Positions 33,865 through 61,276 of a stretch of DNA of 64,000 bases are shown piece after piece. Position numbers and translations under genes: made by a program. The DNA is from an uncultured Solirubrobacterales bacterium (GTDB taxonomy: Bacteria > Actinomycetota > Thermoleophilia > Solirubrobacterales > Solirubrobacteraceae), in assembly GCA_963792735.1 (NCBI GenBank), contig CAWBXK010000008.1, positions 14,306 through 78,305 of the forward strand, given 5' to 3'. The notes beneath the pieces are model-generated. The model had not been told where the DNA came from. It was given only the letters and a program-made list of their open reading frames with translations, and did no database searches. Position 1 is the stretch's first letter. Every line of letters starts with the position of its first letter.

Positions 33865-33888
33865 GTTCCGCGGCCGGGCGGGCGGGTA
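33865..33888 (+). promoter_or_regulatory. SigB/SigF-type promoter candidate
   Basis: GTTC-N15-GGGTA upstream of the CHAD gene. Confidence 0.55.
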
Positions 33889-33927
33889 GCTGAGTAGCAG
33901 ATATGCGGACGATCGCGGGAGTGACAC

Positions 33928-34893
33928 ATGCCCTACAGGCTCGATAACGCCGAGACGGTGCCGGATGGGCTTCGCCGCTGCGCGCGTGAGCAGCTCGACA
34001 TCGCCATCGCCGAGCTCACCGAAGGAGTGCAGTCGGATCCGGTCAAGGCGGTTCACCGGGCGCGCAAGGCACTCAAGAAGGAGCGCTCGCTGCTTCGCCT
34101 CGGTAGGGATGCGTTCGCGCCCGGCGCGCGCAGGCGCGAGGCCAGAGTACTGCGCGGCGTGGCCCAGGACCTGAGCGCCGCTCGCGACGCTGACGTCATG
34201 GTCCAGACCCTCGACGAGCTCGCCGACCGGTTCGCCGGCCAGGTGCCGGAGGTGAGCTTTGCCGTGATTCGCGAACGCCTCGAGCTCCAGCGCGACGGCG
34301 CCCGGCTCCAGCTCGTCAACTCGGCCTCGATCGGCGACGCCGCGGCCGAGCTGATCGAGGCGGGACGCCGTCTGGAGGGCTGGCCCATCCGGGGCGGCGG
34401 CTGGCGCGTGGTCGGCGCTGGTCTGAGCCGGAGCTATCGACGCGGCCGCCGGGCCTCCAGGAAGGCGCGGGCGAACCCCACACCCGAGAACCTGCACGCG
34501 TGGCGCAAGCGGACCAAAGACGTCTGGTATGAGCTACGGCTGCTCGCGCCGATCGCTCCGGGCACGATGCGCGGGCAGGCCAAGGAGGCACACCGCCTGT
34601 CGGATCTGCTCGGCGACGACCACGACCTGTCTGAGCTGCGCCCGGCGATCGCCCGGATCGGCGGCGACATACCGGCTGACGTCGGCTCGGTGATCGGGCT
34701 GATCGATCACCGCCAGGATCAACTTCGGGCCGACGCCTTCTTCGCCGGCGAACGCCTATACGCCGAGACGCCGAAGGCGATGCGGCGGCGAGTCCGCCGG
34801 TATTGGGAGACGTGGCGGGCGGAGGGGCGAGCCGCCAGCTCACGCCGGCCGGCTGAGCTGGCCGATCAGCTTGCCAGCGCGACTGTCCACTGA
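33928..34893 (+). CDS. CHAD domain protein
   Basis: VHRARKALKKERSLL, RDADVM, LHAWRKRTKDVWY, LSDLLGDDHDL. Confidence 0.92.
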   Translation: MPYRLDNAETVPDGLRRCAREQLDIAIAELTEGVQSDPVKAVHRARKALKKERSLLRLGRDAFAPGARRREARVLRGVAQDLSAARDADVMVQTLDELADRFAGQVPEVSFAVIRERLELQRDGARLQLVNSASIGDAAAELIEAGRRLEGWPIRGGGWRVVGAGLSRSYRRGRRASRKARANPTPENLHAWRKRTKDVWYELRLLAPIAPGTMRGQAKEAHRLSDLLGDDHDLSELRPAIARIGGDIPADVGSVIGLIDHRQDQLRADAFFAGERLYAETPKAMRRRVRRYWETWRAEGRAASSRRPAELADQLASATVH

Positions 34894-34923
34894 CGAGCAC
34901 GTGTTCCAGAACAGGAGGCGACG

Positions 34924-35169
34924 ATGGCAAAGGATCACGGTCCGAGCGTCAAGAACGACAAGCAATACGAGGGTCTGCGCAAGAAGGGGATGAGCAAAGG
35001 CCGAGCGGCGGCCATCGCCAACACGCCGGACGCATCGAGCAAGGGCGGCAAGCGGTCGGGCAGCGGGCAGGCCAGCAGCCAGAGCCGCAAGAGCAGTGGC
35101 AGTGGCAGCGGCGGGAACCGCGCGCAGAAGGCCGCCGCGGGGAGAAAAGGCGGCAAGAAGTCAAGCTAA
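34924..35169 (+). CDS. Small basic Gly/Ser/Lys-rich hydrophilic protein
   Basis: AGGAGG RBS; MAKDHGPSVKNDKQYEGLRKKGMSKGRAAAIAN...AAGRKGGKKSS. Confidence 0.8.
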   Translation: MAKDHGPSVKNDKQYEGLRKKGMSKGRAAAIANTPDASSKGGKRSGSGQASSQSRKSSGSGSGGNRAQKAAAGRKGGKKSS

Positions 35170-35187
35170 AACGACGCGCCGAGAAGG

Positions 35188-35211
35188 GTTCACCGCCCGG
35201 TCACTTGGGTA
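35188..35211 (+). promoter_or_regulatory. SigB/SigF-type promoter candidate
   Basis: GTTC-N15-GGGTA, 11 nt before ATG 35223. Confidence 0.6.
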
Positions 35212-35222
35212 GCACAGACGCG

Positions 35223-35687
35223 ATGGCCGATCCGATCCAACTCCTGTCGCTGGAGCTTCCGTGCAACGAGCACGCGCCAGCCACCGTTCGGCAAGCTCTG
35301 GGCAACGCCGGCGCAGCACTTGCCCTGCTTCAAGACGGCCTGCTGGTGGCGAGCGAACTGGTCACCAACGCCGTCCTGCACTCGGGGTGTGAGGAGGATC
35401 ACCGACTCCGCGTCGGGGCCCGTGTGGTGGACGGCCGCCTGCTGATCTCGGTCCACGATCCCGGCATCACGCGGCAGGATGCCACGCCCCGGTGGGAGGC
35501 GAGCGCGCCGGAGGCGACGCAGCGGCCTCAGCCATCAACGGATGGCGCCGTGTCGGCAACCGGGGTTTCGCCAGGCGCACGGGTCGGAGGCTGGGGGTTG
35601 CGGATCGTGGATCAGCTCGCACGTCGCTGGGGTTCCGAGCGACCCGACGGTTATTGCGTGTGGGCGGAGCTTGCGCCCTCGTCATAG
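35223..35687 (+). CDS. ATP-binding protein (RsbW-like anti-sigma factor)
   Basis: LVASELVTNAVLHSG, ISVHDPG, GGWGLRIVDQLARRWG, VWAEL. Confidence 0.85.
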   Translation: MADPIQLLSLELPCNEHAPATVRQALGNAGAALALLQDGLLVASELVTNAVLHSGCEEDHRLRVGARVVDGRLLISVHDPGITRQDATPRWEASAPEATQRPQPSTDGAVSATGVSPGARVGGWGLRIVDQLARRWGSERPDGYCVWAELAPSS

Positions 35688-35840
35688 CGGCCCGGCCGGA
35701 GTGGTACTTTTAGTCGGCTAGCGGCAACGGATGAGCACATCGCGTCCGGGGTGGCGGCAGAGTCGCAAATAGCGGGACTCAGGGCGATCTGAACGGTCGT
35801 TCGGGGACCATCAGCGTTATCGAGGCGGATGATCTGATGC

Positions 35841-36236
35841 TTGCTCGCAACCAACCCCACCCGATCGCCAACCGGCGCCGATGCCGTGCGTGAGAACGTC
35901 CTCAGCGACTCTCCGGCCCCGGGGCATCTGCAAATACGACGCGTCGACGACGCGGATGGCACCGTGGTGGCACTCCATGGCGAGTTGGACCTGAGCTCCG
36001 CGCCCACACTCGAAACGCTGCTGCGCGAGCTTGACGACACCATCCCCGGCCGCATCCTGATCGATCTGCGGAAGCTGAAGTTCATGGACAGCAGCGGCCT
36101 CGCCCTGATGATCCGAGCGCAGCAGATGGCGTTGGCGGCCGGATACCGCCTCGAGCTGCGGCCCGGGCCCAATCAGGTACAGCGGTTGTTCGAGATGACG
36201 GGAACGCTCGACCGCTTCGACTTCGTCTCGGCCTGA
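35841..36236 (+). CDS. STAS-domain anti-sigma factor antagonist
   Basis: VVALHGELDL, LIDLRKLKFMDSSGL (phosphorylatable Ser motif); start uncertain. Confidence 0.9.
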   Translation: MLATNPTRSPTGADAVRENVLSDSPAPGHLQIRRVDDADGTVVALHGELDLSSAPTLETLLRELDDTIPGRILIDLRKLKFMDSSGLALMIRAQQMALAAGYRLELRPGPNQVQRLFEMTGTLDRFDFVSA

Positions 36237-36448
36237 CCTTCGGCGGAGACTCGTGGATCCGGGCCGGAGCATCCTCCTTTTGCCCTCGGACCGGGTTGCC
36301 TGGTGCCGAGGATGCCCTAAGCTAGGAAGCGAGCGCCCGTAGCGCGGACAATGGTGTAGCGGGAGTCGTTTCGAAGCAACCGGCAGACGATCGCCACGCG
36401 GTCTTCTGACGAGCTATCGCAAGGTTTGCGAATCTCGAAAGGAGACAG

Positions 36449-37300
36449 ATGGATAACGGCACGGTGTCGCCAGATGTAGCTCGCGCCCCGCGAGCAGCTG
36501 TACCGCTCGCTCCGGGGCGAGCTCACACCGATCTCAGCACCGCCGCTCTGTTTGACCGCTGGCGTCGTTTCGGCGATCAGACCGCGCGACAGGAGCTCGT
36601 CGGGCGTTACCTTCCCCTCGCCCGCAAGCTCGCATCGCGGTACATGAGCCCGTACGAGCCGTTCGAGGATCTGGTCCAGGTGGCCAGCCTCGGATTGCTC
36701 GGCGCGGTCGATCGGTTTGATCCCGAACGTGGGGTGGAGTTCTCCTCGTTCGCGATTCCGACCATCCTGGGGGAGCTCAAGCGCTACTTCCGCGGCACGG
36801 GCTGGTCGGCCCATGTTCCGCGGCGGGCCCAGGAGCTGGCGCTGAGGGTCGAGACGGCGTCGCGTCAACTCGCCGAGCGGCCCGGCCCGCCGCCATCGGT
36901 GGCCGAGCTGGCGCAGTATCTGGAGTTGACCACCGAAGAGGTGATCACCGGCCTGGAGGCCGGCTCAGCCCACTACTCGGTGTCGCTCGACGCGCCCCAT
37001 GCCGGCGCCGATAGCGAATCCGATCCGGAGTCCCTGACGGAACGGCTCGGCGATGTCGACGAGCGGTTCGGCCTGATCGACACCACCGTGTCGCTTTCGG
37101 CAGCGCTCACGCACCTCCCGCATCTCGAACGTCAAGCGCTCAGTCTGCGCCTGCGGGAGGACATGAAGCAGACCGAGATCGCCGCCCGTCTGGGCTGCTC
37201 TCAGATGCAGGTGTCGCGGTTGCTGCGACGCGCGGCATCCCGGCTCACCGAGCTCATCGATCCGAGCCGCGCCTCGGGCGGGTCAGCTCAGGACGGCTGA
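36449..37300 (+). CDS. SigB/SigF/SigG-family RNA polymerase sigma factor
   Basis: EDLVQVASLGLLGAVDRFDPERG, FAIPTILGELKRYFR, YSVSLD, QTEIAARLGCSQMQVSRLL. Confidence 0.95.
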   Translation: MDNGTVSPDVARAPRAAVPLAPGRAHTDLSTAALFDRWRRFGDQTARQELVGRYLPLARKLASRYMSPYEPFEDLVQVASLGLLGAVDRFDPERGVEFSSFAIPTILGELKRYFRGTGWSAHVPRRAQELALRVETASRQLAERPGPPPSVAELAQYLELTTEEVITGLEAGSAHYSVSLDAPHAGADSESDPESLTERLGDVDERFGLIDTTVSLSAALTHLPHLERQALSLRLREDMKQTEIAARLGCSQMQVSRLLRRAASRLTELIDPSRASGGSAQDG

Positions 37301-37348
37301 CTGCAGCCCGGCTCCGCAGACGGCGCCAGCCAGGCCACCGCGGCGAAG

Positions 37349-37540: not shown

Positions 37541-37550
37541 GGAGCTTCGC

Positions 37551-37574
37551 TACCCGCCCGGGAGGGCGACAAAC
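37551..37574 (-). promoter_or_regulatory. SigB/SigF-type promoter candidate
   Basis: GTTT-N15-GGGTA on the minus strand, 10 nt before ATG 37540. Confidence 0.65.
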
Positions 37575-37649
37575 TAAAACCGCCATCCGGCGGTGATCCT
37601 CGATCCCGGTTCCGGGGGGTGCTGGTGGTGACCGGTGCTGGCCGGGTCG

Positions 37650-37680
37650 GGCCCGGCAAAGACCCGGTGTTTGCCGGGCC
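37650..37680. repeat. Perfect 11-bp inverted repeat overlapping a -35 element
   Basis: GGCCCGGCAAA-N9-TTTGCCGGGCC. Confidence 0.7.
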
Positions 37681-37692
37681 CGGCGCCGGGTA
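37669..37692 (+). promoter_or_regulatory. SigB/SigF-type promoter candidate
   Basis: GTTT-N15-GGGTA, 14 nt before ATG 37707. Confidence 0.65.
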
Positions 37693-37706
37693 GCGAGTGG
37701 GCTGAG

Positions 37707-38285
37707 ATGTCGTCGACCACCTTTTCCGTCAGTGGGCCCCCGGAGGACCTCGGAGAGCGCGCGGCCGCCTCGAGCGATCGGCCCGAGCGCGGGCCGGACG
37801 CCACCGGCGTACTGGCCGGACATTCCCCGACCCGGTACCGGCCCTTGGGTGGCTATGTCGCGGTGATGAGCACCTTCACGGGCGCCGCCACCGCGTTCGG
37901 CGTCTGGTTTCGCCGCAGTGGCCGTGAGCTGCCCGAGGCGATCTCGGTCAGGGACCTGCTGCTGCTCACCGTGGCCAGCCACAAGGCGGCGCGCGTGATC
38001 GCCAGGGATCGCGTCACCAGCGGCGTGCGGGCGCCGTTCACGACCTTCGAGCATGACGCGGGCCCGGGGGAGGTGGCCGAACGAGCTCGCGGCCGAGGCG
38101 TGCGTCGCGCGATCGGCGAGCTGCTGGTCTGCCCGTACTGTCTGGGAATGTGGACCAGCGCCGCATTGACTGCAATGTTGCTGGTGGCGCCCCGCTTGAC
38201 CCGCTGGCTGGCGTCGGTGCTGACGATCTTCTCGGGATCTGAGTTGCTGCAGGCCGTCCATCGCTCCAAGGCTCCCGAGCGGTGA
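37707..38285 (+). CDS. DUF1360-like membrane protein
   Basis: ASHKAARVIARDRVTSGVRAPF, IGELLVCPYCLGMW. Confidence 0.8.
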   Translation: MSSTTFSVSGPPEDLGERAAASSDRPERGPDATGVLAGHSPTRYRPLGGYVAVMSTFTGAATAFGVWFRRSGRELPEAISVRDLLLLTVASHKAARVIARDRVTSGVRAPFTTFEHDAGPGEVAERARGRGVRRAIGELLVCPYCLGMWTSAALTAMLLVAPRLTRWLASVLTIFSGSELLQAVHRSKAPER

Positions 38286-38771: not shown

Positions 38772-38816
38772 GGGCTTGTGCTCCCGGTGTCGAGGTTGCG
38801 CTGCTGGGCCGGGCTC

Positions 38817-38841
38817 TACCCGCGCGCCAGGACGTGCAATC
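38817..38841 (-). promoter_or_regulatory. SigB/SigF-type promoter candidate
   Basis: GATT-N16-GGGTA upstream of the Ala/Lys-rich gene. Confidence 0.45.
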
Positions 38842-38859
38842 GATGTCGGCTCGGCGGGA

Positions 38860-40039: not shown

Positions 40040-40065
40040 GTTACGGATCCGGGCCGACCCGGGTA
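40040..40065 (+). promoter_or_regulatory. SigB/SigF-type promoter candidate for the fdh operon
   Basis: GTTA-N17-GGGTA, 11 nt before GTG 40077. Confidence 0.55.
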
Positions 40066-40076
40066 GGGTTTCGGTC

Positions 40077-43000
40077 GTGTCGCTCCGCGAGCGCCTGACC
40101 CCGCCCCTGGTTCGCCAACTCGGCTCGGACCCGCTGGGGCTCAGCCGAGCGGCGCAATCCCCGCGCTCGGTCCACCTCACTCCGCGCACCGCGAGTGCCG
40201 ACAAGGTGGTCAGATCGGTATGTCCCTACTGCGCGGTCGGCTGCGGCCAGCGCGTGTATGTCAAGGATGAGCGCGTGATCCACATCGAGGGCGATCCGGA
40301 TTCTCCGATCTCCCGCGGCCGCCTGTGCCCCAAGGGATCGGCGTCCGAGCAGCTGGTCAACTCGCCGCAGCGCGAAACCAAGGTCAAGTACCGGCGGCCG
40401 GGCGGCACCGGCTGGGAGGAGCTGTCGCTCGAGCAGGCGACCGAGATGATCGCCGAGCGCCTGATCCGCGTCCGCGAGGAGACCTGGGAGGACACCAATG
40501 ACGACGGCGAGCCGCTGAAGCGCACACTCGGCGTCCACTTCCTGGGCGGGGCGACACTGGACAGCGAGGAGAACTACCTGATCAAGAAGTTCTTCACCTC
40601 GGCCGGTGCGGTGTCGGTCGAGAACCAGGCGCGGATATGACACAGCTCCACGGTTCCCGGTCTGGGAGCCTCGTTCGGGCGCGGCGGTGCCACCACGTTT
40701 CAGCAGGATCTGCAGAACTCCGACTGCATCCTGATCATGGGCTCCAACATGGCCGAGCAGCACCCGGTCGGCTTCCAATGGGTGGTGGAGGCCAAGGCGC
40801 GCGGAGCCAAGGTGATCCACGTCGACCCTCGGTTCACCCGCACCAGCGCGATGGCCGACCGCCACGTGCCGATCCGGGCCGGAAGCGACATTGCCTTCCT
40901 CGGCGGGATCGTCAACTACATCTTCGAGCACGACGCCTGGTTCCGCGAGTACGTCGAGCACTACACCAACGCCCCGGTCCTGATCCGGGAGGACTTCGAC
41001 GACGCGGAGCACGGAGGCGGACTGTTCTCGGGCTGGAACCCGGAGACGGGCGCCTACGACACCGACAGCTGGGGCTACGACGAGACCTCGCCGGGCTCGC
41101 AGGCGGGGTCGCGGGAAGCCGAGGCCGACCAGTCAGGCGAGCAGTCCCACGGCGCTCATGGGCTGAAGCTGGTGGGGGGCAACCCGCCCCATCTCGACCC
41201 GACGATGGAGCACGAGCGCTGCGTGCTGCAGATCGCCAAACGCCACTTCGCCCGTTACACCCCGGAGCTGGTGGCCGACCTGTGCGGATGCTCAGAGGAG
41301 GACTTCCTCGCGGTGGCCCGGACTCTGTGTGAGAACTCCGGCCGCGAACGCACCTCCGCCATCGTCTACGCGGTCGGCTGGACCCAGCACACGGTGGGGG
41401 TGCAGAACATTCGCGCCGCGTCGATCGTGCAGATGCTGCTGGGCAACATCGGTCGCCCCGGTGGCGGCATCCTCGCCCTGCGCGGGCACGCCAACATCCA
41501 GGGCTCGACCGACATACCGACGCTCTACAACATCCTGCCCGGGTACATCCCGATGCCCCACCCGCAGAGGCATCCAACGCTTCAGGCGTTCGTCGAGCAC
41601 AGCGGACCGGAGACCGGTGCCTGGGGAAACCTGTGCAACTACGTGGTCTCCCTGCTCAAGGCCTGGTGGGGCGACGCCGCCACCGAGGCCAACGATTACT
41701 GCTTCGGCCACCTGCCGCGGATCGACGGCGACCATTCGCACTACGCGATGATGCTGAAGATGCTCGACGGCGGGGTACGGGGTATGTTCTGCGTCGGCCA
41801 GAACCCAACCGTGGGCTCGGCGAACTCAAAGCTGATGCGCCTCGCCCTGGCCAAGCTCGACTGGCTCGTGGTGCGCGATTTCCAGCCCACCGAGACCGGT
41901 TCGTTCTGGCTGGACTCGCCCGAGCATGAATCCGGGGAAGTGCGCGCGCGGGACATCCAGACCGAGGTGTTCTTCCTCCCGACCGCCGCGCACACCGAGA
42001 AGGAGGGCTGCTTCACCAATACCCAGCGGCTGCTGCAGTGGCGTGAGAAGGGCTGCGAGCCACCCGGGGAGGCGCGCTCGGACCTGCACTGGATCTACCA
42101 CCTGGGCCGGGCGGTGCGCCGCAAGCTGGCCGATTCCGACGATCCCAAGGATCGGCCGATCCTCCAGCTGACCTGGGACTACCCGGTCAGCGGACCCCAC
42201 GACGAGCCCGACGCGACCGCGATCTTGCGTGAGATCGGGGGCCACGACGCCGATCGGGCGCCACTGCCCAGCTACGACGCGCTCAAGCCCGACGGCTCGA
42301 CCGCGTGCGGTTCGTGGATCCACGCCGGGATCTTCGCCGATGGCGTCAACCAGGCGGCGCGGCGGCGGCCGGGCTCGGAGCAGAACTGGATCGCCCCCGA
42401 GTGGGGGTGGGCGTGGCCCAAGAACGTCCGCATCCTCTACAACCGCGCCTCGGCCGACCCGGAGGGCAAGCCCTGGTCAGAGCGCAAGCGCTATGTGTGG
42501 TGGGACGCTGACCAGGGGCGCTGGACGGGACTGGGCGACGCGGCCGACTTCCCGACCACCAAAGATCCGGGCTACCGGCCCGACGACGACGCCGAGAGCC
42601 TGGACGCGATCGCGGGTGACAAGCCGTTCATCATCACTCCTGACGGGCGCAGCTGGATCTTCGCCCCGACGGGACTGGTCGATGGGCCGCTCCCGCTCCA
42701 CTACGAGCCCCACGAGAGCCACGCTCGCAATCCCCTCTACGGTCAGCAGCGCAACCCCACCCGGCAGCAGTTCCCGCGGCGCGAGAACGCGTATGACCCC
42801 GGCGGTCCCGAGGAGGGGGTGTTCCCGTATGCGCTCACCACCTACCGCCTGACCGAGCACCACACCGCGGGCGGGATGTCGCGGACCGTCCCGTACCTGG
42901 CCGAGCTGCAGCCGGAGTTCTTCTGTGAGGTCTCACCGGAGCTCGCCGCCGAGCGGGGGCTCGAGCCCGCCGGCTGGGCCACGATCATCACCGCGCGCGC

Positions 43001-43280
43001 GGCCGTCGAAGCGCGCGTGCTGGTGACCGAACGGATCAAGCCGCTGCGGATCCAAGGCAGAACCCTGCACCTCGTCGGTGCTCCGTACCACTGGGGTGGG
43101 GTCGGGGTCGTCACCGGGGACCCGGCCAACGAGCTGCTGCCGATCGTGCTCGACGGCAACGTGCACATCAACGAGTACAAGGTCGCCACCTGTGACATCC
43201 GGCCCGGCCGGCGCCCCCGCGGTCCGGCGCGCCTGGAGCTGGTGGAGCAGTATCGCCGGCGGGCCGGGATCTCCTCGTGA
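40077..43280 (+). CDS. fdnG: Formate dehydrogenase alpha subunit, selenocysteine-containing (Sec at codon 188, TGA 40638-40640), about 1067 aa
   Basis: CPYCAVGCG and RGRLCPKG (4Fe-4S); ENQARI-U-HSSTVPGLGASFGRGGAT; MGSNMAEQHP; LRGHANIQG; TYRLTEHH. Upstream and downstream track ORFs share one frame across the TGA. Confidence 0.95.
40652..40670 (+). promoter_or_regulatory. Bacterial SECIS element of fdh
   Basis: GGTTCCC-GGTCT-GGGAGCC: 7-bp stem (one G-U) with GGUCU loop 18 nt after the TGA, similar to the E. coli fdhF apical loop as I recall it. Confidence 0.85.
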
Positions 43281-44170
43281 AGCTCGAGACTCACAAGTGG
43301 CCGGCCGCCTACGGTGAGCAGGCCAAGCCCCGAAAGGGCTTCTTCACCGACACCTCGATCTGCATCGGCTGCAAGGCCTGCGAGGTCGCCTGCAAGGAGT
43401 GGAACCAGGTGCCGGCCTCGATCGAGGGGTTCAGCGGCAACTCGTACGACAACTCCGTCGCGCTCGGTGCCGATCGCTGGCGCCACGTGGCATTCATCGA
43501 GCAGCGACTCCCGACCGAAGTCGGCGATGGAGCATCGCTGGTCCAATCCGCCGAGCGCCACACCGCCGTCGACGCCGGGGTGGCCAGTCACCAGGAGGGC
43601 GACGGGCTGCGCTGGCTGATGGCCTCCGACGTCTGCAAGCACTGCACCGACGCCGCGTGCCTGGAGGTGTGTCCGACCGGAGCCCTGTTTCGCACCGAGT
43701 TCGGCACGGTGGTCGTCCAGCCGGACGTGTGCAACGGGTGCGGCTACTGCGTATCGGCCTGCCCCTTCGGGGTCATCGACCGTCGCGAGGACGACGGGCG
43801 CGTGTGGAAGTGCACGCTGTGCTACGACCGCCTCAAGGACGATCTGGAGCCGGCCTGCGCCAAGGCCTGCCCCACCGACTCGATCCAGTTCGGCGACCTG
43901 CTTGAGCTGCGCGACCGCGCCGAGCAGCGCGTGGCGAAGCTCCAGGCCGCCGGCCAGGAACGCGCGCAGCTCTACCTCGCCGACGAGCACGACGGGGTGG
44001 GGGGAGCGGGCGCCTTCTTCCTGCTGCTGGACGAGCCCGAGGTGTACGGGCTGCCGCCTGACCCGGTGGACACCGTGCGCGAGCTCGGGTCGATCTGGAA
44101 CGCCACCGGTGCCGCCGCGCTCGCGCTGGGCGCCGGTCTGGCCGCGGCGATGCTCGGCGGGCGACGATGA
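43277..44170 (+). CDS. fdnH: Formate dehydrogenase iron-sulfur (beta) subunit
   Basis: CIGCKACEVACKEWN, CKHCTDAACLEVCP, CNGCGYCVSACP, KCTLCYDR...PACAKACP; C-terminal TM; GTGA overlap. Confidence 0.93.
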   Translation: MKLETHKWPAAYGEQAKPRKGFFTDTSICIGCKACEVACKEWNQVPASIEGFSGNSYDNSVALGADRWRHVAFIEQRLPTEVGDGASLVQSAERHTAVDAGVASHQEGDGLRWLMASDVCKHCTDAACLEVCPTGALFRTEFGTVVVQPDVCNGCGYCVSACPFGVIDRREDDGRVWKCTLCYDRLKDDLEPACAKACPTDSIQFGDLLELRDRAEQRVAKLQAAGQERAQLYLADEHDGVGGAGAFFLLLDEPEVYGLPPDPVDTVRELGSIWNATGAAALALGAGLAAAMLGGRR

Positions 44171-45066
44171 ACGAGGACGCGGAGACCTCATACCACGGGC
44201 AGCCGGTGCTCAAGATGCCGGTGTGGAGCTGGGAGATCCCGTGCTACCTGTTCACCGGCGGGCTGGCCGGCGCGTCGGCCGGCGTCGCGTACCTGGCCGG
44301 GCTGCGGGGCGACCGGACGCTCGCTCGCCGGGCGTGGGTGGTGTCGGCGGCGGGAATCGGCGCCAGCCCGCCGCTGCTGATCTCCGATCTGGGACGGCCG
44401 GAGCGGTTCGCCTACATGCTGCGGGTGTTCAAGGTCACCTCGCCGATGAGCGTCGGTTCCTGGATCCTCTCGGTCTCCGGGACCGGCATCTCGCTGGCGG
44501 CGTTTCACGCTGTCACCGGCAAGCTTCCCCGCGGCGCCGCCCTGGCGCGCCCGGTGGCGGCGCTGTCCGGGCTGCCGCTGGCCACCTACACCGGCGCGTT
44601 GCTGGCCAACACCGCGGTCCCGGCCTGGCATGAAGCCAGACGGACGCTGCCGTTTGTGTTCGGCGCCGGCGCCGCGTTGAGCGCCGGGGCGGCGTGCACT
44701 GCGGTCACGCCGCCCGCCCACGCCGGCGCGGCGCGGCGGCTGGCCCTGGGGGCGGCCGGGGTCGAACTGGCCGCGACCCAGATCATGGAGCGCGGGCTGG
44801 GCGTCCACGCCGAGACCTATCGAACCGGACGCGCGGGCCGGTACTCGTGGCTCAGCCGCGGCTTCATCGTCAGCGGAGCGGCGCTGCTGGCCACCCGCGG
44901 CGCGGTCAGCCGCACGGCCGCGGTGGCCTCAGGCGCGCTGCTGTGCGCCGGCGCGTTCGCGACCCGGTGGACCGTGTTTGAAGCGGGCCGCCGCTCAGCC
45001 GCCGATCCTCGCTACGTGGTCGGTCCGCAGCGCCGGCGGGTCGGCGAGCGACTCCGGTCGGGATGA
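44167..45066 (+). CDS. nrfD: NrfD/PsrC-family membrane anchor subunit
   Basis: WSWEIPCYLFTGGLAG, LISDLGRPERF, SPMSVGSWIL, YTGALLANTAVPAW. Confidence 0.9.
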   Translation: MNEDAETSYHGQPVLKMPVWSWEIPCYLFTGGLAGASAGVAYLAGLRGDRTLARRAWVVSAAGIGASPPLLISDLGRPERFAYMLRVFKVTSPMSVGSWILSVSGTGISLAAFHAVTGKLPRGAALARPVAALSGLPLATYTGALLANTAVPAWHEARRTLPFVFGAGAALSAGAACTAVTPPAHAGAARRLALGAAGVELAATQIMERGLGVHAETYRTGRAGRYSWLSRGFIVSGAALLATRGAVSRTAAVASGALLCAGAFATRWTVFEAGRRSAADPRYVVGPQRRRVGERLRSG

Positions 45067-45067
45067 G

Positions 45068-45091
45068 GTGTACGCACAGACGGGCGGGGTA
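45068..45091 (+). promoter_or_regulatory. SigB/SigF-type promoter candidate
   Basis: GTGT-N15-GGGTA upstream of the pfpI-like gene. Confidence 0.5.
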
Positions 45092-45126
45092 CCCCTTCTC
45101 TAAGCGAGCAATCGATTGGAGTTGAG

Positions 45127-45705
45127 ATGGCAGAAGAACTGAAGGGCAAGAAGATCGCGATCATCGCCACCGACGGCGTGGAGCAGGTGGAGCTGGTCAA
45201 GCCGCGCGAGGCGGTACAGGACGCCGGGGCCGAGGCCGAGCTGCTGTCGCCGGGCGACGGCGAGATCCAGGCGATGAACCACGACCTCGAGCCCGCGGAC
45301 AAGTTCAGCGTCGACAAGCGCATCGGCGATGCTTCGGCCGAGGACTACGACGGGTTGATCCTTCCGGGCGGGACGGTCAACGCCGACAAGCTCCGGATCG
45401 AGGAGGACGTGATCTCGTTCGTGCAGGAGTTCCTCCGGTCGGGCAAGCCGGTCGGGGTGATCTGTCACGGCCCCTGGACACTGGTCGAGGCGGACCTCGT
45501 GCGAGGCCGCACGCTGACCTCGTATCCGAGCATCCGGACCGACATCCGCAACGCCGGCGGAACGGTCGTGGACGAAGAGGTCGTCGTCGACGAGGGGCTC
45601 GTCTCCTCACGGAATCCCGACGATCTGCCGGCCTTCTGCGCCAAGATCGTCGAGGAGTTCGCGGAGGGCCGCCATCAGGTGGCGACCTCCGGCGCCACGG
45701 CGTAA
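45127..45705 (+). CDS. pfpI: PfpI/DJ-1 family (type 1 glutamine amidotransferase-like) protein
   Basis: DGVEQVEL, LILPGGTVNADKLR, VICHGPW, SSRNPDDL. Confidence 0.93.
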   Translation: MAEELKGKKIAIIATDGVEQVELVKPREAVQDAGAEAELLSPGDGEIQAMNHDLEPADKFSVDKRIGDASAEDYDGLILPGGTVNADKLRIEEDVISFVQEFLRSGKPVGVICHGPWTLVEADLVRGRTLTSYPSIRTDIRNAGGTVVDEEVVVDEGLVSSRNPDDLPAFCAKIVEEFAEGRHQVATSGATA

Positions 45706-45810: not shown

Positions 45811-45835
45811 GTGAGAGGGCAGGCCTGATCGGGTA
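45811..45835 (+). promoter_or_regulatory. SigB/SigF-type promoter candidate
   Basis: GTGA-N16-GGGTA upstream of the GMC cassette. Confidence 0.4.
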
Positions 45836-45905
45836 GTCCCTCCCCGTGCGCCGTCCACGCCGATCGCTTCCTGCCGCGCGCAGGCCGCAGCACCTGATCG
45901 ACCGT

Positions 45906-49750: not shown

Positions 49751-51516
49751 TCGCGGCGCTCACGGGCGTGGGTGTCCCTCACGCGCTGCGTGATTACGCA
49801 CTGCTCGCCGACGGCGAGCGCGGCGTCCTGGTCGGTCCGCGCGGCGACTACGCCTGGATGTGCTTCCCCCGCTGGGACTCGGCGGCGTGCTTCGCGACCC
49901 TGATCGGCGGCCAGGGCGTCTACGCGGTGACCCCCGACGCCCGCTTCGTGTGGGGAGGCTACTACGAGCACGGCCTGATCTGGCGCAGCCGGTGGGTCAC
50001 CGACGACGGCGGCCTGATCGAGTGCCGCGAGGCCCTGGCGCTACCCGCGCGGCCCGACCGGGTGGTGGTGCTGCGCCAGCTCCTCGCGCGCACCGGACCC
50101 GCGCGCGTGAACGTGGTCCTCGACCTGCGGGCGGACTTCGGCGCTCAGCGGGCCCGCCGCCTCACGCGTGCCGACGACGGAAGCTGGAGCGCGCAGGTGG
50201 GGGAGTCTCACGTGCAGTGGACGGGGGCGGGCACGGCCAAGCCCCGCGCCGACGGTCACGGGGGCGAGCCCCTGGTGATGGCGCTCGAGCTCGCGGAAGG
50301 CGCCGTCCACGACCTGGTCCTGGTCATCGACTCTCGGCCCGACGGCGAGCCGGCGCCCGAGCCGGCGCGCGCCTGGTCGGGCACCGAAGCGGCGTGGCGC
50401 GAGCGCCTGCCCGAGCTGCAGTGCCCGGTGGCGGCCCGCGATGCGCGTCACTCCTACGCGGTGCTGCAGGGACTGACCAGCGCCGGCGGCGGGATGGTGG
50501 CGGCGGCCACGATGTCGCTGCCCGAGCGCGCCCGCCAGGGACGCAATTACGACTACCGCTACGTGTGGATCCGGGATCAGTGCCTGACCGGCCAGGCCGT
50601 GGCCAAGGCCGGTCCGTTCCCCCTGCTGGACGATGCCGTGGGGTTCGTGCGCGATCGCCTGCTGGCGGACGGGCCGAACATGGTGCCCGCCTACACGGTC
50701 ACCGGCGGCCCCGTGCCCGACCAGCGCAGCCTCGGCCTGCCGGGCTACCCGGGCGGGACCGACGTGGTCGGAAACTGGGTCAACCATCAGTTCCAGCTCG
50801 ACGCCTTCGGCGAGTCGCTGCTGCTGTTCGCCGCCGCGGCGGGCCATGACCACCTCGACGCCGACGGCTGGCGTGCGGTGGAAATCGCGGTCGACGCGAT
50901 CGAGCGGCGCTGGCGCGAGGCCGACGCCGGCATCTGGGAGCTCGAGCCCGACCACTGGACCCACAGCCGGCTGATCTGCGCCGCCGGGCTGCGCGCGATC
51001 GCCGCCCATCAGTCCTCGGAGCGGGCCGCCCGCTGGGTGGCCCTGGGCGACGCGATCGTCGCTAGGACCGGCGCCGAGGCGGTTCACCCCGAGGGGCGCT
51101 GGCAGCGCTCCCCGACCGACACGCGGATCGACGCGGCCCTGCTGCTGCCGGCGATCCGGGGCGCGATCCCGGCAGCCGACCCCCGCTCCGTGGCCACGCT
51201 GGAGGCGGTCGAGCGCGAGCTGACCGTGGACGGCTACTGCTTCCGCTACCGCCCCGACGAGCGCCCCCTGGGCGAGTCCGAGGGCGCGTTCCTGCTGTGC
51301 GGCTTCTTGCTCTCGCTGGCCTGGGCCCAGCAGGGCGACGCAGTCCGGGCGGCGCGCTGGTTCGAGCGCAACCGGGCCGCCTGCGGCCCCCCGGGGCTCG
51401 TCTCGGAGGAGTTCGACGTCGCCGAGCGCCAGCTGCGCGGGAACCTGCCGCAGGCGTTCGTGCACGCCGTGCTGCTCCAGTGCGCCGTGACCCAGGATGA
51501 GGCCAGGACGCAGTGA
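49747..51516 (+). CDS. GH15 glycoside hydrolase (cytoplasmic, trehalase/glucoamylase-like)
   Basis: ATGA overlap with SDR; DYALLADGERG, NYDYRYVWIRD, QLDAFGE, DAGIWE, EGAFLLCGF, GNLPQAFVH. Confidence 0.92.
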   Translation: MIAALTGVGVPHALRDYALLADGERGVLVGPRGDYAWMCFPRWDSAACFATLIGGQGVYAVTPDARFVWGGYYEHGLIWRSRWVTDDGGLIECREALALPARPDRVVVLRQLLARTGPARVNVVLDLRADFGAQRARRLTRADDGSWSAQVGESHVQWTGAGTAKPRADGHGGEPLVMALELAEGAVHDLVLVIDSRPDGEPAPEPARAWSGTEAAWRERLPELQCPVAARDARHSYAVLQGLTSAGGGMVAAATMSLPERARQGRNYDYRYVWIRDQCLTGQAVAKAGPFPLLDDAVGFVRDRLLADGPNMVPAYTVTGGPVPDQRSLGLPGYPGGTDVVGNWVNHQFQLDAFGESLLLFAAAAGHDHLDADGWRAVEIAVDAIERRWREADAGIWELEPDHWTHSRLICAAGLRAIAAHQSSERAARWVALGDAIVARTGAEAVHPEGRWQRSPTDTRIDAALLLPAIRGAIPAADPRSVATLEAVERELTVDGYCFRYRPDERPLGESEGAFLLCGFLLSLAWAQQGDAVRAARWFERNRAACGPPGLVSEEFDVAERQLRGNLPQAFVHAVLLQCAVTQDEARTQ

Positions 51517-51866
51517 GTCAGATTCTCACCGCCGTTCGGGCCGTCTACGGTGCGGTCCTGCTGCTGGGCTCCGAGCATCTCCTCAGCCGCCTGTCCGGCG
51601 CGCCGGTCGACTCCCGCGCCCGTACCGTGGCGCGGGTGCTGGGGGCGCGGGAGCTGCTCCAGGCCGAGCTGACATGCCGGTATCCCACCCGCGCCGTGCG
51701 GCGCCTCGGGGTCGGGGTCGACTCAGTTCACGCTGCCTCGATGGTGGCGCTGGCCGTGCTCGATCCGGCCCGGCGGAGACTGGCGACGCACAACGCCGTC
51801 AGCGCGGCGGCGCTGGCGCTGGCTGGAGCCGCCGCCGTCTACTTCGCCCCGGCTTCGCGCTCTTGA
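51513..51866 (+). CDS. Small membrane protein
   Basis: GTGA overlap with GH15; ARVLGARELLQA, GVDSVHAASM. Confidence 0.7.
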   Translation: MSQILTAVRAVYGAVLLLGSEHLLSRLSGAPVDSRARTVARVLGARELLQAELTCRYPTRAVRRLGVGVDSVHAASMVALAVLDPARRRLATHNAVSAAALALAGAAAVYFAPASRS

Positions 51867-52234: not shown

Positions 52235-52473
52235 CGCTCTGTATTCGGGGCGAACCCGGCCCGTCCTGTGCGCGGCGCTCGGGCACCCCGGGAACGGACG
52301 TGATGAGTCTGAGTGACCGCATGCGCCGCTCAGTCTCATCACGCCCGGATTCCGGCCGGTCCGGAGCGATTCCGACTCGAGTTGTGTGACGTCGGTCACG
52401 GTTGCGCGCTTTAGGCGGACCCGACCCCGACGAACGGGGTACATATGAATACCAACCCCCAAAGGAGCAATTG

Positions 52474-52983
52474 ATGCCTGAAGACAATCAGGGCGAACGC
52501 ACCGCCGGCGGCGTGGTCGGCCGCGCGGTCGGCAAAGCCAAGGAGGCGCTCGGCAGCGTCATCGACAATGACGAGCTGGCCCGCGAGGGGCGCCTGCAGC
52601 AGGCCCAGTCCGAAACCGAGCTCGAAGCCCGCCGCGAGGCCCAGGAGGCAAAGGCGCAGGAGCAGCGAGCCGAGGTCCGCGAACGCCAGGTGGAGGTCGA
52701 GACCGAGCGCGAGCGGCTCCAGAATGAGGTGGCCGCCAACCAGCGCGAGGAACGGATCGAGCAGGACCGGCGCGAGGCCGAACAGCGTGCCGCGGCGCAA
52801 GCCGCACAGGAGCGCGCGGCCGCGCAATCCCAGCTACAGGCCGAGCAGGACAACGCGGAGCGCTCCGTGCAGGCGGCCGAGCGCCAGCGCGTGGCCACGA
52901 CGGAGGAGGCGAACCGGCTCGAGCGTGAGGCCAGTGCCGCCGAGCGCCGCGCCGAGCACCTGGATCCCAAGGAGGAGTCATGA
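52474..52983 (+). CDS. CsbD-like stress protein with Glu/Gln/Arg-rich coiled-coil tail
   Basis: AAGGAG RBS; GKAKEALGSVIDNDELAREGRLQQ. Confidence 0.75.
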   Translation: MPEDNQGERTAGGVVGRAVGKAKEALGSVIDNDELAREGRLQQAQSETELEARREAQEAKAQEQRAEVRERQVEVETERERLQNEVAANQREERIEQDRREAEQRAAAQAAQERAAAQSQLQAEQDNAERSVQAAERQRVATTEEANRLEREASAAERRAEHLDPKEES

Positions 52984-57008: not shown

Positions 57009-57009
57009 C

Positions 57010-58118
57010 TCAGACACCGTCGACCGTCGCGGCGTCCGCGATGGCGGCTTCGCCCGCCCGCGCGAGCAGCGGATCGAGCCGATGCTGAAGCAGGAACACC
57101 TGCAGGTCGCGACGCGAGCGATCAAGCGCATCGGCGCGCACGAACGGCCGCGATCCGCACGCTCGCGCGGCCTCGTCCAGGAGCAACCGGCAGGCGTCGG
57201 AGATCGCCGCTCGCGCGTGCAGACCGACCGCGGCCAGATCCGGGCCGGAGAGGTCCATCGCCGAGGCCGCCGCGTCGATCCAGACCGAAATGGTCCGCTG
57301 GGCGGTGAGCATGCGGCCCGCGGCCACGGCCTCGAGCTGGCTGCTCGCCGGCCGCGCCGCCAGCCCGGCCAGCGCCGCCCGCACGGCGGTATCGGCCATG
57401 CCGGCCCAGGACGCCGCGGTACGCAGCGCGTCGCGGGCGAACCAGGGCGGCTCGGAAATGCTTCCGGGTCCTCCGAGCTGGGCCATCACCGGCGCGTCGT
57501 CGAACACCACGCGGTGTGACACCGACGCCCGCAGGCCGTGGGAGAGATACCAGGACTCGTCGATCTCGATCCGCGCGTGGTCGGTCATGTCGATCCACAC
57601 CAGAAGCGGTGGCCCGCCGTGTTCGGCGCGGGCCAGCACGAGGGCGCGGTGCAGCCCACCCGCGCCGGAGCAGAACGTCTTCACACCGCGCAGGACCCGC
57701 GCCCCACCCCGCTCGAGCACCATCGCGGGGGCTCCTTCCCCGGCACGGGGTCACCGCCCCACACGCCTGCGCGCAGCTCGCCGGACGCCACGGCGGCCAG
57801 CTCGCGCTCACGCAGGCCCGGCGGTCCCTGCACGGCGATCCGCTCGACCGCGTTGAGATGCCCGTCGAAGATCCGCCCGACCGAGCCGTCGGCCGCCGCC
57901 ACCCGCCGGACCAGCCCGAGCTCGTCGGCGGCGGGCGGTCGCTGCGGCCCGAGCCCGGCGTTGAACGCCAGCGCGCCGGCCCGCTCGAGGCGGGCGATCG
58001 CCGCCTCGGGAAAGGCAGGGTGGGGCTCGGCGTCGAGCTTCCCCGCCTCGGTGGCGATCAGTTCAAGCGCCTGCTCGAGCTCCGCCGCGGCCTCGGCGCG
58101 GGCCAGCAGCGCGGTCAC
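57010..58118 (-). pseudogene. Acyl-CoA dehydrogenase-like protein split by a 1-nt frameshift
   Basis: N-part (DGSVGRIFDGHLNA, GVWGGDP) and C-part (GVKTFCSGAG, LRASVS, RDLQVFLLQHR). Adding one base to the C4 run at 57738-57741 gives DPVPGEGAPAMVL and about 369 aa. May be a sequencing indel. Confidence 0.75.
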
Positions 58119-58687: not shown

Positions 58688-58697
58688 TTAGAACATC

Positions 58698-58721
58698 TAC
58701 CCGCGGGAGGAGCTTCATCAC
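58698..58721 (-). promoter_or_regulatory. SigB/SigF-type promoter candidate
   Basis: GTGA-N15-GGGTA, 10 nt before GTG 58687. Confidence 0.5.
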
Positions 58722-58745
58722 TCGGGAGGCATCGATGCTACGCGG

Positions 58746-58771
58746 GTTAGACGGTGGGGCGTTTGGGGGTA
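58746..58771 (+). promoter_or_regulatory. SigB/SigF-type promoter candidate
   Basis: GTTA-N17-GGGTA, 10 nt before ATG 58782. Confidence 0.55.
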
Positions 58772-58781
58772 GTGAGGGACG

Positions 58782-59435
58782 ATGGCGATTGCGATCCTCG
58801 ATATCGACGGCACGCTGGTGGACACCAACTACCACCACGTGATCGCGTGGGCCCGGGCCTTCGAGCAGTACGAGATCGTGCTGGCGCTGTGGCGCGTGCA
58901 CCGTCACATCGGAATGGGCGGCGACCAGGTCGTGGCCGCCCTGTGCGGCGACGAGGTGGAGAACGAGCTCGGCGACGACATCCGTGCCGCGGAGGGCGAG
59001 CGCTACCGCGAGCTGATCGACGAGGTGAAGACGATGGAGGGAGCGCGTGAGCTGATCGTCGCGCTCAAGGAGCGTGATCACGCGGTCGTGCTCGCGAGCT
59101 CGGCCAAGCAGGACGAGGCCGACCACTATCTGGACCTGCTCGACGCCCGCTCGCTCGCTGACGCCTGGACCACGTCGGCTGACGTGGAGGAGACCAAGCC
59201 CGCCCCGGACCTGGTCCGAGCCGCATTGAAGCGGGTCGAGAACCATCCCGGCCCGGCGGTCATGGTCGGCGACACGCCGTGGGACGTCAAGGCGGCGGCC
59301 GCGGCCGATGTGCAGACCATCGCCGTGGTCACGGGGGGTTTTGCCTCGCAGGAGCTGCGCGACGCCGGCGCCGCCGCGGTGTTCGAGTCGGTGGCGGAGC
59401 TGTGCGAACGGCTCGAGGAGACGCCGCTGCGCTGA
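58782..59435 (+). CDS. HAD-family hydrolase
   Basis: LDIDGTLVD, LASS, KPAPD, MVGDTPWD. Confidence 0.93.
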   Translation: MAIAILDIDGTLVDTNYHHVIAWARAFEQYEIVLALWRVHRHIGMGGDQVVAALCGDEVENELGDDIRAAEGERYRELIDEVKTMEGARELIVALKERDHAVVLASSAKQDEADHYLDLLDARSLADAWTTSADVEETKPAPDLVRAALKRVENHPGPAVMVGDTPWDVKAAAAADVQTIAVVTGGFASQELRDAGAAAVFESVAELCERLEETPLR

Positions 59436-59559
59436 CGGAGGGGCCTGGACGTGCGGAAGGTGGTGGCAGGGGATCGCTGGACAGATGGCCAAGGCACGCC
59501 GGTGCCGTGGCGGGCTTAATGTCCAGGTGAGCGAAACCGCCCAACCATGCGAGAGCTCC

Positions 59560-60717
59560 ATGGACGCCCCGACGTGGTCTGAGTGGGTTCCGTCGCGGCC
59601 GTTCTCGGTCGGTTTGGAGGAGGAGGTGATGCTCCTGGCGCCCGATCACGACTGGGCTCTGGCCCAGCGTTCCGACGACGTCCTGCCGGCGCTGTCCCCC
59701 GAGTTGGCCGAGCACGTCTCGGCGGAGACCCACAGCTCGGTCATCGAGCTCGCCACCTTCCCCCACCCGGACGTTGAGAGTGTCGCCGAGCAGGCGGGGC
59801 GGCTGCGCGCGCGCCTCGCCGACGAGCTGGGCCCGATGGGGCTGCGGGCCGCCTGCGCCGGAACCCACCCCCGCGCGGTATGGACCGAGATCGTGGTCTC
59901 GGCCGGAGACCGCTACCAGGAGGTCCACGCGGCGATGCGGGAACTGGCCCGGCGGGAGCCGACGCTGGGACTGCACGTCCACATCGGGGTGGACGACCCG
60001 GAAGCCGCCATCTCTCTGCACAACCGGCTGCGCGCCCACCTGCCGTTGCTGCTGGCGCTGTCGGCCAACTCCCCGTTCTGGCAGGGCCGCGACACCGGGT
60101 TGGCCTCGGCGCGGACGCCGATCTTCCAGGCATTTCCGCGCGTCGGAATCCCGCGCGAATTTGACGACTACCAGGACTACGTGGAAACGGTCGACCGGCT
60201 CCTGCGCTGCGGCGCGTTCCCGGATCCCACCTACCTGTGGTGGGACATCAGGCCACAGCCGCGGTTCGGGACAGTCGAGGTACGGATCATGGACGTGCAG
60301 CTCAACCCCACCGACACGCGAGCGCTGGTCGCCCTCGTGCAGTCCATCGCCTATCTGGAGCTCGAGGAGGGTTATCACTCCAGCGATCTGGCCGGGGGAG
60401 CCGAGGTCCTGGCCGAGAACCGCTTCCTGGCCTCACGGGATGGCATGCAGGCGCGGCTGATCGACGCGGTCAACGAGGAACAGGTGCCGGCGCTGACGGC
60501 GGTCGGGCGTCTGATCGACGCGACCCGGCCCTATGCCGAGGTGCTCGGTTGCGTGGAGGCGCTCGAGAGCGTGGCGGCCCTGGCCCGCGAGACCGGGGCC
60601 TCGCGCCAGCGCCAGGTCCGGGACGACTGCGGCGCGATGGCGTCGGTGGCGCGGTACCTGGCCGACGACTTCAGCGCCCCGTTCGGGCGCGGCACGAGCC
60701 GACCGGACCATCGCTGA
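59560..60717 (+). CDS. ybdK: Second YbdK/GCS2 carboxylate-amine ligase
   Basis: FSVGLEEEVMLL, AGTHP, GLHVHIG, ANSPFWQGRDTGLASAR, WWDIRPQPRFGTVEVRIMD; start uncertain. Confidence 0.9.
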   Translation: MDAPTWSEWVPSRPFSVGLEEEVMLLAPDHDWALAQRSDDVLPALSPELAEHVSAETHSSVIELATFPHPDVESVAEQAGRLRARLADELGPMGLRAACAGTHPRAVWTEIVVSAGDRYQEVHAAMRELARREPTLGLHVHIGVDDPEAAISLHNRLRAHLPLLLALSANSPFWQGRDTGLASARTPIFQAFPRVGIPREFDDYQDYVETVDRLLRCGAFPDPTYLWWDIRPQPRFGTVEVRIMDVQLNPTDTRALVALVQSIAYLELEEGYHSSDLAGGAEVLAENRFLASRDGMQARLIDAVNEEQVPALTAVGRLIDATRPYAEVLGCVEALESVAALARETGASRQRQVRDDCGAMASVARYLADDFSAPFGRGTSRPDHR

Positions 60718-60719
60718 GG

Positions 60720-61238
60720 TCAGGCCCGGTCTCCGAGCCGGCGGCGCGACAGCGCGATCTCGTCCAGCGCCTGCGCCCGGGAGCGCCAGCCGCCGATCTG
60801 GACCGACTTGTCCGCCTCCAGCTCCTTGTAGATCGAGAAGAACTGCTCTATCTCCTGCCGTAGCAGCAGCGGAAGCTCCTCGACCTCCTCGTAGTGATTC
60901 CAGTACGGATCGTGCAGCGGGACACAGAGGATCTTGTCGTCAGAGCCCTTCTCGTCGCTCATCACGAACATCCCGATCGGCTGGACCGGAATCAGGCAGC
61001 CGGGGAACGTGGGCTCGGTCAGGCACACCAGTGCGTCGAGCTCATCGCCATCGGCCCCCAACGTCCCGCGCAGGTAGCCGTAGTCGGTCGGATAGGTGGC
61101 GGCGCTCATCAGCAGGCGGTCGAACTTGATTCCTCCCAGCTCGGCGTCGTACTCGTACTTGTTGCGAGTTCCCTTGGGGATCTCGACGACGCAGAGGAAG
61201 GCGTGCTCTTCCTCCACGGGATCCGGGTCACCGCTCAT
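60720..61238 (-). CDS. ppa: Inorganic pyrophosphatase (family I)
   Basis: EIPKGTRNKYE, YPTDYGY, DGDELD, DDKILCV. Confidence 0.93.
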   Translation of the reverse strand: MSGDPDPVEEEHAFLCVVEIPKGTRNKYEYDAELGGIKFDRLLMSAATYPTDYGYLRGTLGADGDELDALVCLTEPTFPGCLIPVQPIGMFVMSDEKGSDDKILCVPLHDPYWNHYEEVEELPLLLRQEIEQFFSIYKELEADKSVQIGGWRSRAQALDEIALSRRRLGDRA

Positions 61239-61251
61239 CTGATCATCTGTC

Positions 61252-61276
61252 GCTATTAAAGCCGCAACCGGGGGTA
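61252..61276 (+). promoter_or_regulatory. SigB/SigF-type promoter candidate
   Basis: GCTA-N16-GGGTA, 10 nt before ATG 61287; -35 match is weak. Confidence 0.45.

Follow-up and report, generated by a model that had tools for sequence, protein, structure and literature searches.

A cluster of GGGTA promoters in an uncultured Solirubrobacterales bacterium: a probable general-stress regulon island of the SigB/SigF class

The DNA analysed here, in the following called the window, is a stretch of 64,000 nucleotides (nt) from an uncultured bacterium of the order Solirubrobacterales. It corresponds to positions 14306-78305 of contig C8 in a 4.9-Mb genome of 11 contigs with 69-70% G+C, and the nearest public relatives are metagenome-assembled genomes (MAGs) labelled uncultured Solirubrobacterales. 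The block from 33.9 to 62.3 kb of the window holds about 30 of its 35 genes in about a dozen transcription units headed by the short motif GGGTA. Judged from its sequence, this block is very probably a general-stress regulon island behind promoters of the SigB/SigF class.

The proposed promoter class would comprise a -35 element GNTT/GTTT, a spacer of 15-17 nt and the -10 element GGGTA(G/C), and the island promoters would be read by RNA polymerase carrying a sigma factor of the SigB/F family. In seven units, the A of GGGTA could serve as the -11 base, in which case the transcript would begin with the start codon or beside it and be leaderless. Additionally, an RsbW-like anti-sigma candidate, a STAS antagonist and a sigma factor encoded in the block may constitute a partner-switching module with a GGGTA promoter of its own. 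The promoter function, the transcription start, the reading sigma factor and the inducing signal (stress, stationary phase or dormancy) are what we infer here.

The GGGTA sites, their excess and their geometry

Gene calling relied on a codon-bias model that had been trained on this genome, and the genes were named by Pfam and NCBIfam, which upheld the gene names given for the block in an earlier note on this DNA. Gene starts were set from this caller, an open reading frame (ORF) listing, Pfam matches and promoter geometry, and the start codons at 45846, 37707 and 36449 were corrected by the analysis. All twelve GGGTA sites of the earlier note, whose coordinates refer to where the -35 element or the gene begins, are present, and all are intergenic and co-oriented with the start of their gene (Table 1). 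The -35 element described there as G-rich is in fact GNTT/GTTT; seven sites have the canonical form, three a GTGT/GTGA variant and the F420-dependent LLM gene a weak one, and the CsbD-like gene has no -35, its -10-only copy at 52437 being confirmed. Likewise, the gap of 10-11 nt between motif and start codon is real, the count being seven (rsbW-like, orf63, fdhA, orf159, deacetylase, HAD, LLM) and not six. The A of GGGTA lies 11-12 nt ahead of the first base of the start codon in these seven units. Leaders of 14-45 nt characterize the other five, four of which feature a Shine-Dalgarno sequence. The -10 region of pfpI (45087-45094) lies in a palindrome, GGGTACCC, which yields a GGGTA count on either strand; only the plus-strand copy faces a gene.

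Table 1. Promoter sites and genes of the block, and clusters of island genes in related genomes. The GGGTA column gives the first G of the motif; the gap is the number of nt between motif and start codon.
Feature	Position	GGGTA	Strand	Description
Promoter of CHAD	33864..33889	33884	+	GGTT-N16-GGGTAG, gap 39 nt
CHAD	33928-34893		+	Pfam; followed by DUF7218 at 34924-35169
Promoter of rsbW-like gene	35187..35212	35207	+	GGTT-N16-GGGTAG, gap 11 nt to ATG, near-leaderless
RsbW-like anti-sigma candidate	35223..35687		+	HATPase_c_2 36.3 bits (cut-off 27.4)
STAS anti-sigma-factor antagonist	35886..36236		+	TIGR00377 61.4 bits (cut-off 53.45); STAS_2 55.8 bits
SigB/SigF/SigG-family sigma factor	36449..37300		+	regions 2, 3 and 4; start behind Shine-Dalgarno GAAAGGAG
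Promoter of orf63	37550..37575	37555	-	GTTT-N15-GGGTAG, gap 10 nt to ATG, leaderless geometry
orf63	37540-37349		-	ORF without Pfam match
Promoter of DUF1360 gene	37669..37693	37688	+	GTTT-N15-GGGTAG, gap 14 nt to ATG 37707
DUF1360 gene	37707-38285		+	Pfam; ATG start
Promoter of orf100	38816..38841	38821	-	GATT-N16-GGGTAG, gap 45 nt
orf100	38771-38469		-	
Promoter of fdhA operon	40040..40066	40061	+	GTTA-N17-GGGTAG, gap 11 nt to GTG
fdhA-fdhB-nrfD operon	40077-45066		+	GTG start; formate dehydrogenase alpha (selenocysteine TGA of fdhA at 40638), 4Fe-4S subunit, NrfD anchor
Promoter of pfpI	45068..45092	45087	+	GTGT-N15-GGGTAC, gap 35 nt
pfpI/DJ-1	45127-45705		+	Shine-Dalgarno present
Promoter of orf159/GMC cassette	45811..45836	45831	+	GTGA-N16-GGGTAG, gap 10 nt to GTG 45846
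GMC cassette	45846-51866		+	GTG start; orf159, gluconate dehydrogenase subunit 3, GMC oxidoreductase, SDR, GH15, orf117
-10-only site of CsbD-like gene	52437..52442	52437	+	GGGTAC without -35, gap 29 nt; weakest site
CsbD-like gene	52471-52983		+	Shine-Dalgarno AAGGAG; followed by orf211 (to 53615)
Promoter of deacetylase operon	58697..58721	58702	-	GTGA-N15-GGGTAG, gap 10 nt to GTG
Deacetylase operon (six ORFs)	58687-53630		-	GTG start; polysaccharide deacetylase, two acyl-CoA-dehydrogenase-like ORFs (57681-58118, 57010-57723), NodS methyltransferase, flavoprotein reductase, GT2-GpgS fusion
Promoter of HAD	58746..58772	58767	+	GTTA-N17-GGGTAG, gap 10 nt to ATG
HAD	58782-59435		+	ATG start; GCS2 (59560-60717) downstream
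Promoter of F420 LLM	61252..61277	61272	+	weak -35 TATT-N14, GGGTAA, gap 10 nt to ATG
F420-dependent LLM oxidoreductase	61287-62255		+	ATG start; TIGR03557
Clustered island genes, G017	C48 130-177 kb			
Clustered island genes, G007	C2 381-438 kb			
Clustered island genes, G015	C5 64-79 kb			
Clustered island genes, G016	C18 241-341 kb			
Clustered island genes, G018	C12 317-351 kb			
Clustered island genes, G005	C24 20-33 kb			

The intergenic DNA of 33859-61286 (1949 nt) contains 13 copies of GGGTA versus 3.2 +/- 1.6 in 500 dinucleotide-preserving shuffles, the maximum of which was 9, so that none of the 500 reached 13. The density in this segment amounts to 6.7 copies per kb in intergenic and 0.39 per kb in coding DNA. 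The intergenic DNA of 1-31000 holds four copies against 3.0 expected. The comparison of the block with 1-31 kb and with shuffled sequence thus places the excess in the block and not in 1-31 kb, and refutes the possibility, considered in the earlier note, that the motif is no more frequent than at random. Among sliding 28-kb windows, the block moreover ranks first in the genome on three measures: co-oriented upstream GGGTA (11 versus lambda 1.52, P 6e-7), GGGTA in leaderless geometry (6 versus 0.26, P 3e-7) and full -35/-10 pairs (6 versus 0.38, P 3e-6). Second in density is a cluster on contig C6 (about 249-293 kb) with eight upstream sites per 28 kb; it includes two genes of CoxS-type 2Fe-2S subunits and recalls the SigF-dependent MSMEG_0684-0686 of Mycobacterium smegmatis.

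The position of the motif relative to genes is sharply defined throughout the genome. Over all predicted starts, GGGTA begins at -15 in 30 genes, versus about one to seven at adjacent positions, and this places its A at -11, with the start codon beginning at +1. Such a fixed position is the geometry of a -10 element which would drive a leaderless transcript. Ahead of gene-proximal GGGTA, enrichment of GTT/GNTT is confined to a spacer of 15-17 nt, and a -35 of this kind accompanies 25% of the upstream sites versus 5% of the copies in coding DNA. As a baseline, GGGTA occurs anywhere in the 200 nt upstream of about 6% of genes, and in leaderless geometry at about 1%. This geometry is found at seven of the twelve island promoters and about one third of the motif sites genome-wide, versus about 11% of all genes. 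Furthermore, the housekeeping-type hexamer TANNNT piles up at -12 to -16 in about 500 genes, so that leaderless mRNAs would be common in this organism; about one tenth of its genes appear to be transcribed from housekeeping-type promoters into leaderless or near-leaderless mRNAs.

Conservation and clustering in related genomes

Orthologues of the island genes were sought in 30-40 related genomes and their upstream DNA was read. GGGTA and its distance to the gene are kept while the flanking intergenic sequence diverges. For the F420-dependent LLM enzyme, seven of eight orthologues have the motif 10-11 nt from the start together with GNTT -35 elements, and 11 of 12 orthologues of the deacetylase operon carry it, mostly in leaderless geometry. 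The PfpI orthologues, which include those of other families of the order, feature GGGTA 33-60 nt upstream in 16 of 18 cases, usually with a GTTT -35. Further support comes from HAD (9/18), from orf63 (4/7, also in L001) and from the DUF1360 gene, whose orthologue in L001 carries the motif at 11 nt from the ATG. Five of the six closest FdhA orthologues have the motif, and its rarity in a distant FdhA paralogue group provides an internal negative, as does the GMC-cassette promoter, which is confined to the present genome.

The island genes are also co-located in relatives, with their order shuffled (Table 1), and the motif clusters there again: by pattern scan, eight of 56 hits in G017 fall within 48 kb of contig C48 and five of 113 hits in G015 within 22 kb of contig C5. 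The assignment of the promoters to the SigB/SigF type is supported by the GNTT/GTTT -35, the 15-17 nt spacing, the excess and the conservation, and the physically clustered regulon with short or absent leaders by the top genomic rank and the seven units in leaderless geometry. The further suggestion that the selenocysteine formate dehydrogenase, the F420 enzyme and the GT2-GpgS operon stand under stress or dormancy control holds as far as their promoters are conserved in orthologues; its wording 'stress or dormancy' draws on gene content and published SigF/SigB biology.

Outside the window, twenty genes behind GNTT-N15-17-GGGTA were named, 16 of them with a Pfam family: PRC-barrel, aldehyde dehydrogenase, 4HBT thioesterase, two SRPBCC, isochorismatase, DUF6458, an MR/MLE member of the enolase superfamily, DUF1259, DUF892, SDR, lipase, a CoxS-type 2Fe-2S subunit, Ku, DUF6328 and Clp_N-HTH. 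Regulons of general stress and stationary phase typically show such a mix. The Ku gene (contig C10:15681) has GGTT-N17-GGGTAG 12 nt before its start. In the window, just left of the island, LigD is split into a ligase and a phosphoesterase gene (30138-31705, minus strand), with GGGTAG 47 nt upstream and no clear -35. End-joining repair by Ku and LigD may belong to the same regulon.

The sigma factor and the competing readings

The genes for the RsbW-like protein (HATPase_c_2) and the STAS protein lie directly upstream of the sigma gene, the adjacency expected of partner switching, and the matches to HATPase_c_2, TIGR00377 and TIGR02980 bear out the three gene assignments of the earlier note. 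The sigma factor (283 amino acids) comprises Sigma70_r2 (residues 50-119), r3 (129-198) and r4 (219-266) of Pfam and is devoid of the long N-terminal region of primary sigma factors. It stays below the cut-offs of the SigF model PRK07122 (229 vs 372) and the SigB model TIGR02941 (166.5 vs 315). No NCBIfam model matched the RsbW-like protein, and no phosphatase of the RsbU/RsbP type was seen in the window. The 213-nt gap before the sigma gene contains no GGGTA; it contains TTGCCT-N16-TAAGCT, a possible housekeeping promoter.

Several observations weigh against a SigB/SigF-class regulon island. The -35 element is a variant or weak at four of the twelve sites and missing at one more. The sigma factor scores barely above the cut-off of its family model TIGR02980 (234.8 bits, cut-off 234.35). 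The promoter of the GMC cassette was expected to be conserved, an expectation rejected by its occurrence in none of 12 relatives (one of 13 genomes), where orf159 follows another gene. The conservation counts stem from phylogenetically related genomes and are not independent events. Besides, when GNTT-N15-17-GGGTA is counted over the whole genomes of six relatives, the totals are no higher than those of a reversed-pattern control; raw counts thus carry no signal, and only local clustering or the position relative to genes does.

Among the competing readings, the one that survives best concerns the factor that reads the promoters. The earlier note credited the block with its own SigB-type switch, i.e., promoters read specifically by the sigma factor of 36449-37300 under control of the adjacent RsbW-like/STAS pair. 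The location of all three genes inside the densest promoter cluster speaks for such a self-contained island, as does the GGGTA promoter 11 nt before rsbW, which could feed all three, and orthologues of the sigma clade adjoin island genes in G017, G012, G005 and L001-L003. Nevertheless, the genome encodes four SigB/F paralogues (that of the island, two on contig C7 at 308983-309819 and 311223-311999, and one on contig C3 at 322388-323152) in which regions 2.3-2.4 (PTI[LIV]GE[LI]KR[YH]FR) and 4.2 (SQMQVSR[LI]LR) are almost identical; an assignment of the reading sigma factor by phylogeny and alignment of the recognition regions was tried and dropped, the regions being too alike to discriminate. 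In a maximum-likelihood tree of 76 homologues, the island sigma factor falls into a small, well-supported clade (100/97) limited to a few relatives (G005, G012, G017 and two further MAGs), and the widely conserved paralogues are those of the C7 type. Relatives devoid of this clade (G007, G011, G015, G016, G009, G013) keep GGGTA upstream of the LLM, deacetylase, PfpI and FdhA genes. Moreover, a conserved leaderless, presumably autoregulatory GGGTA promoter belongs to sigma genes of the C7 type (here C7 308968, and most orthologues), and the orthologues of the island sigma factor generally lack it. A conserved RsbW-STAS-sigma unit was likewise rejected: relatives of the RsbW-like protein were weak and confined to five of 30 genomes, and its gene was not found within 10 kb of the sigma orthologues in L001-L003. 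The near-identical paralogues and the promoters kept in relatives without the island sigma factor leave the island's 'own switch' unproven and, in our judgement, rather unlikely. It is at least as likely that several paralogues overlap in recognition, or that an autoregulated sigma factor of the C7 type heads a cascade. At C7:308968-311999, a STAS gene is flanked by two SigB/F paralogues in facing orientation, and the plus-strand paralogue has a leaderless GATT-N15-GGGTAG.

Two bolder extensions of the regulon-island reading are that the lineage wires SigB/F promoters preferentially to leaderless mRNAs, and that the regulon is kept as one island that is reshuffled and not dispersed across the genus. 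We regard these as a long shot. If the leaderless wiring were true, stress induction would be coupled to translation independent of Shine-Dalgarno sequences. If the island were kept whole, this would imply selection for co-location, e.g., by a shared chromosomal domain or co-inheritance, with the lineage-specific extra sigma paralogue as a second tier of a sigma cascade.

It is highly improbable that GGGTA represents the operator of a regulator, or a translation signal at a set distance from start codons, instead of a -10 element. In principle, a translational element could also account for the constant spacing to the start codon. However, the A sits exactly at the -11 required for a transcript beginning at the start codon, the second element GNTT lies at the promoter-typical 15-17 nt, and the motif also occurs 29-60 nt before genes with an ordinary Shine-Dalgarno sequence, e.g., PfpI. 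Furthermore, GGGTA is not paired with the anti-Shine-Dalgarno sequence and ends 10 nt from the start codon, which is too far, and it is identical to the experimentally mapped SigF promoter (PMC4694148, PMC6448022). A repetition by chance or base composition in G+C-rich intergenic DNA, for which the shortness of GGGTA, its 51 copies versus 35 expected in the whole window and the unremarkable pattern counts of the relatives could be cited, has already been refuted by the shuffles and the lack of excess in the 1-31 kb half, by the top rank of the block in the genome, by the sharp peak relative to start codons and by the retention of the motif upstream of orthologues.

Known systems, significance and neighbouring features

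The island is a conserved further case of a known SigF-type arrangement and not a new mechanism. In M. smegmatis, the SigF consensus is GTTT-N14-19-GGGTA with the variants GGTT, GTGT and GCTT, and for many of these promoters the distance to the annotated start codon is 8-11 nt (Singh et al., 2015; PMC4694148). The same promoter form and proximity to start codons recur here, and the GTGT/GTGA -35 elements at three island sites correspond to variants listed for M. smegmatis (PMC4694148). Moreover, when transcription start sites were mapped in M. smegmatis, 56 promoters induced by hypoxia showed GGGTA at their -10 region (Martini et al., 2019; PMC6448022). Likewise, a contiguous SigF-dependent block, MSMEG_1766-1804, ends in chaB-rsbW-sigF, and a consensus promoter is located more than 1 kb upstream of sigF (PMC4694148). 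The present island resembles this layout in that putatively dependent operons form a contiguous run by a sigma factor and an RsbW-type anti-sigma factor, with 12 promoters within 27.4 kb and the consensus promoter of the sigma factor 1.2 kb upstream, before rsbW. Similarities extend to the regulon content, i.e., oxidoreductases, a GT2 glycosyltransferase, molybdopterin/CoxS-type enzymes and trehalose- or glycan-related genes. Unlike M. smegmatis, the host is an uncultured member of the class Thermoleophilia, order Solirubrobacterales. Further differences are the four paralogous sigma factors instead of a single SigF, the gene order RsbW-STAS-sigma and the cargo, which comprises a selenocysteine formate dehydrogenase, an F420-dependent LLM enzyme and a GpgS-containing operon.

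The SigB-like family of Streptomyces coelicolor consists of several paralogues with overlapping promoter specificity (consensus GNNT-N14-16-GGGTA(C/T)) and partner-switching regulators, with roles in osmotic and oxidative stress and in differentiation. The present genome likewise encodes several SigB/F paralogues with similar recognition regions; we know of no comparably dense physical island in S. coelicolor. In Bacillus subtilis, SigB is encoded in the order rsbV-rsbW-sigB and recognizes GTTTAA-N12-14-GGGTAT, and its regulon is scattered, with mRNAs that have leaders. Membership in the TIGR02980 family, the -10 core GGGTA, a STAS antagonist with a kinase-type anti-sigma factor and the general stress protein families CsbD and PfpI/DJ-1 are shared with this system, whereas the order is W-STAS-sigma instead of V-W-sigma and the units are clustered instead of scattered.

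The promoter code GNTT-N15-17-GGGTA and the island layout would thereby be extended to the Solirubrobacterales, an abundant and hardly cultured soil lineage of deep-branching Actinomycetota, and offer an in-silico handle on the stress or dormancy programme of this lineage. It is predicted that the selenocysteine formate dehydrogenase with its NrfD anchor, the F420-dependent oxidoreductase, PfpI/DJ-1 and the operon of the glucosyl-3-phosphoglycerate synthase belong to this programme.

Apart from the genes of Table 1, the block contains a second GCS2 ligase and an inorganic pyrophosphatase. Rfam and transfer RNA (tRNA) scans of the window gave no match, so the GGGTA motif is not part of a known RNA family. 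A scan for sigma-70 promoters and terminators returned counts at the level of shuffled sequence and was of no use for defining operon ends. An inverted GGGTA pair, GGGTAGCTCACACATTACCC, is located at 23917-23936 in a gene-free gap of 767 nt (23831-24597), again without Rfam or tRNA match. Outside the island, a canonical GTTT-N17-GGGTAT at 6019-6041, 36 nt before a gene of 886 amino acids (6077-8737), is an isolated candidate promoter of the SigB/SigF class. Just left of the island and downstream of an AhpC/thioredoxin-fold fusion (31820-33352), two adjacent ORFs at 33340-33858, which have no GGGTA promoter, match the N- and C-terminal halves of the UGSC family model. They share one frame, split by a single TGA at about 33610-33612, and this pair is likely a selenoprotein.

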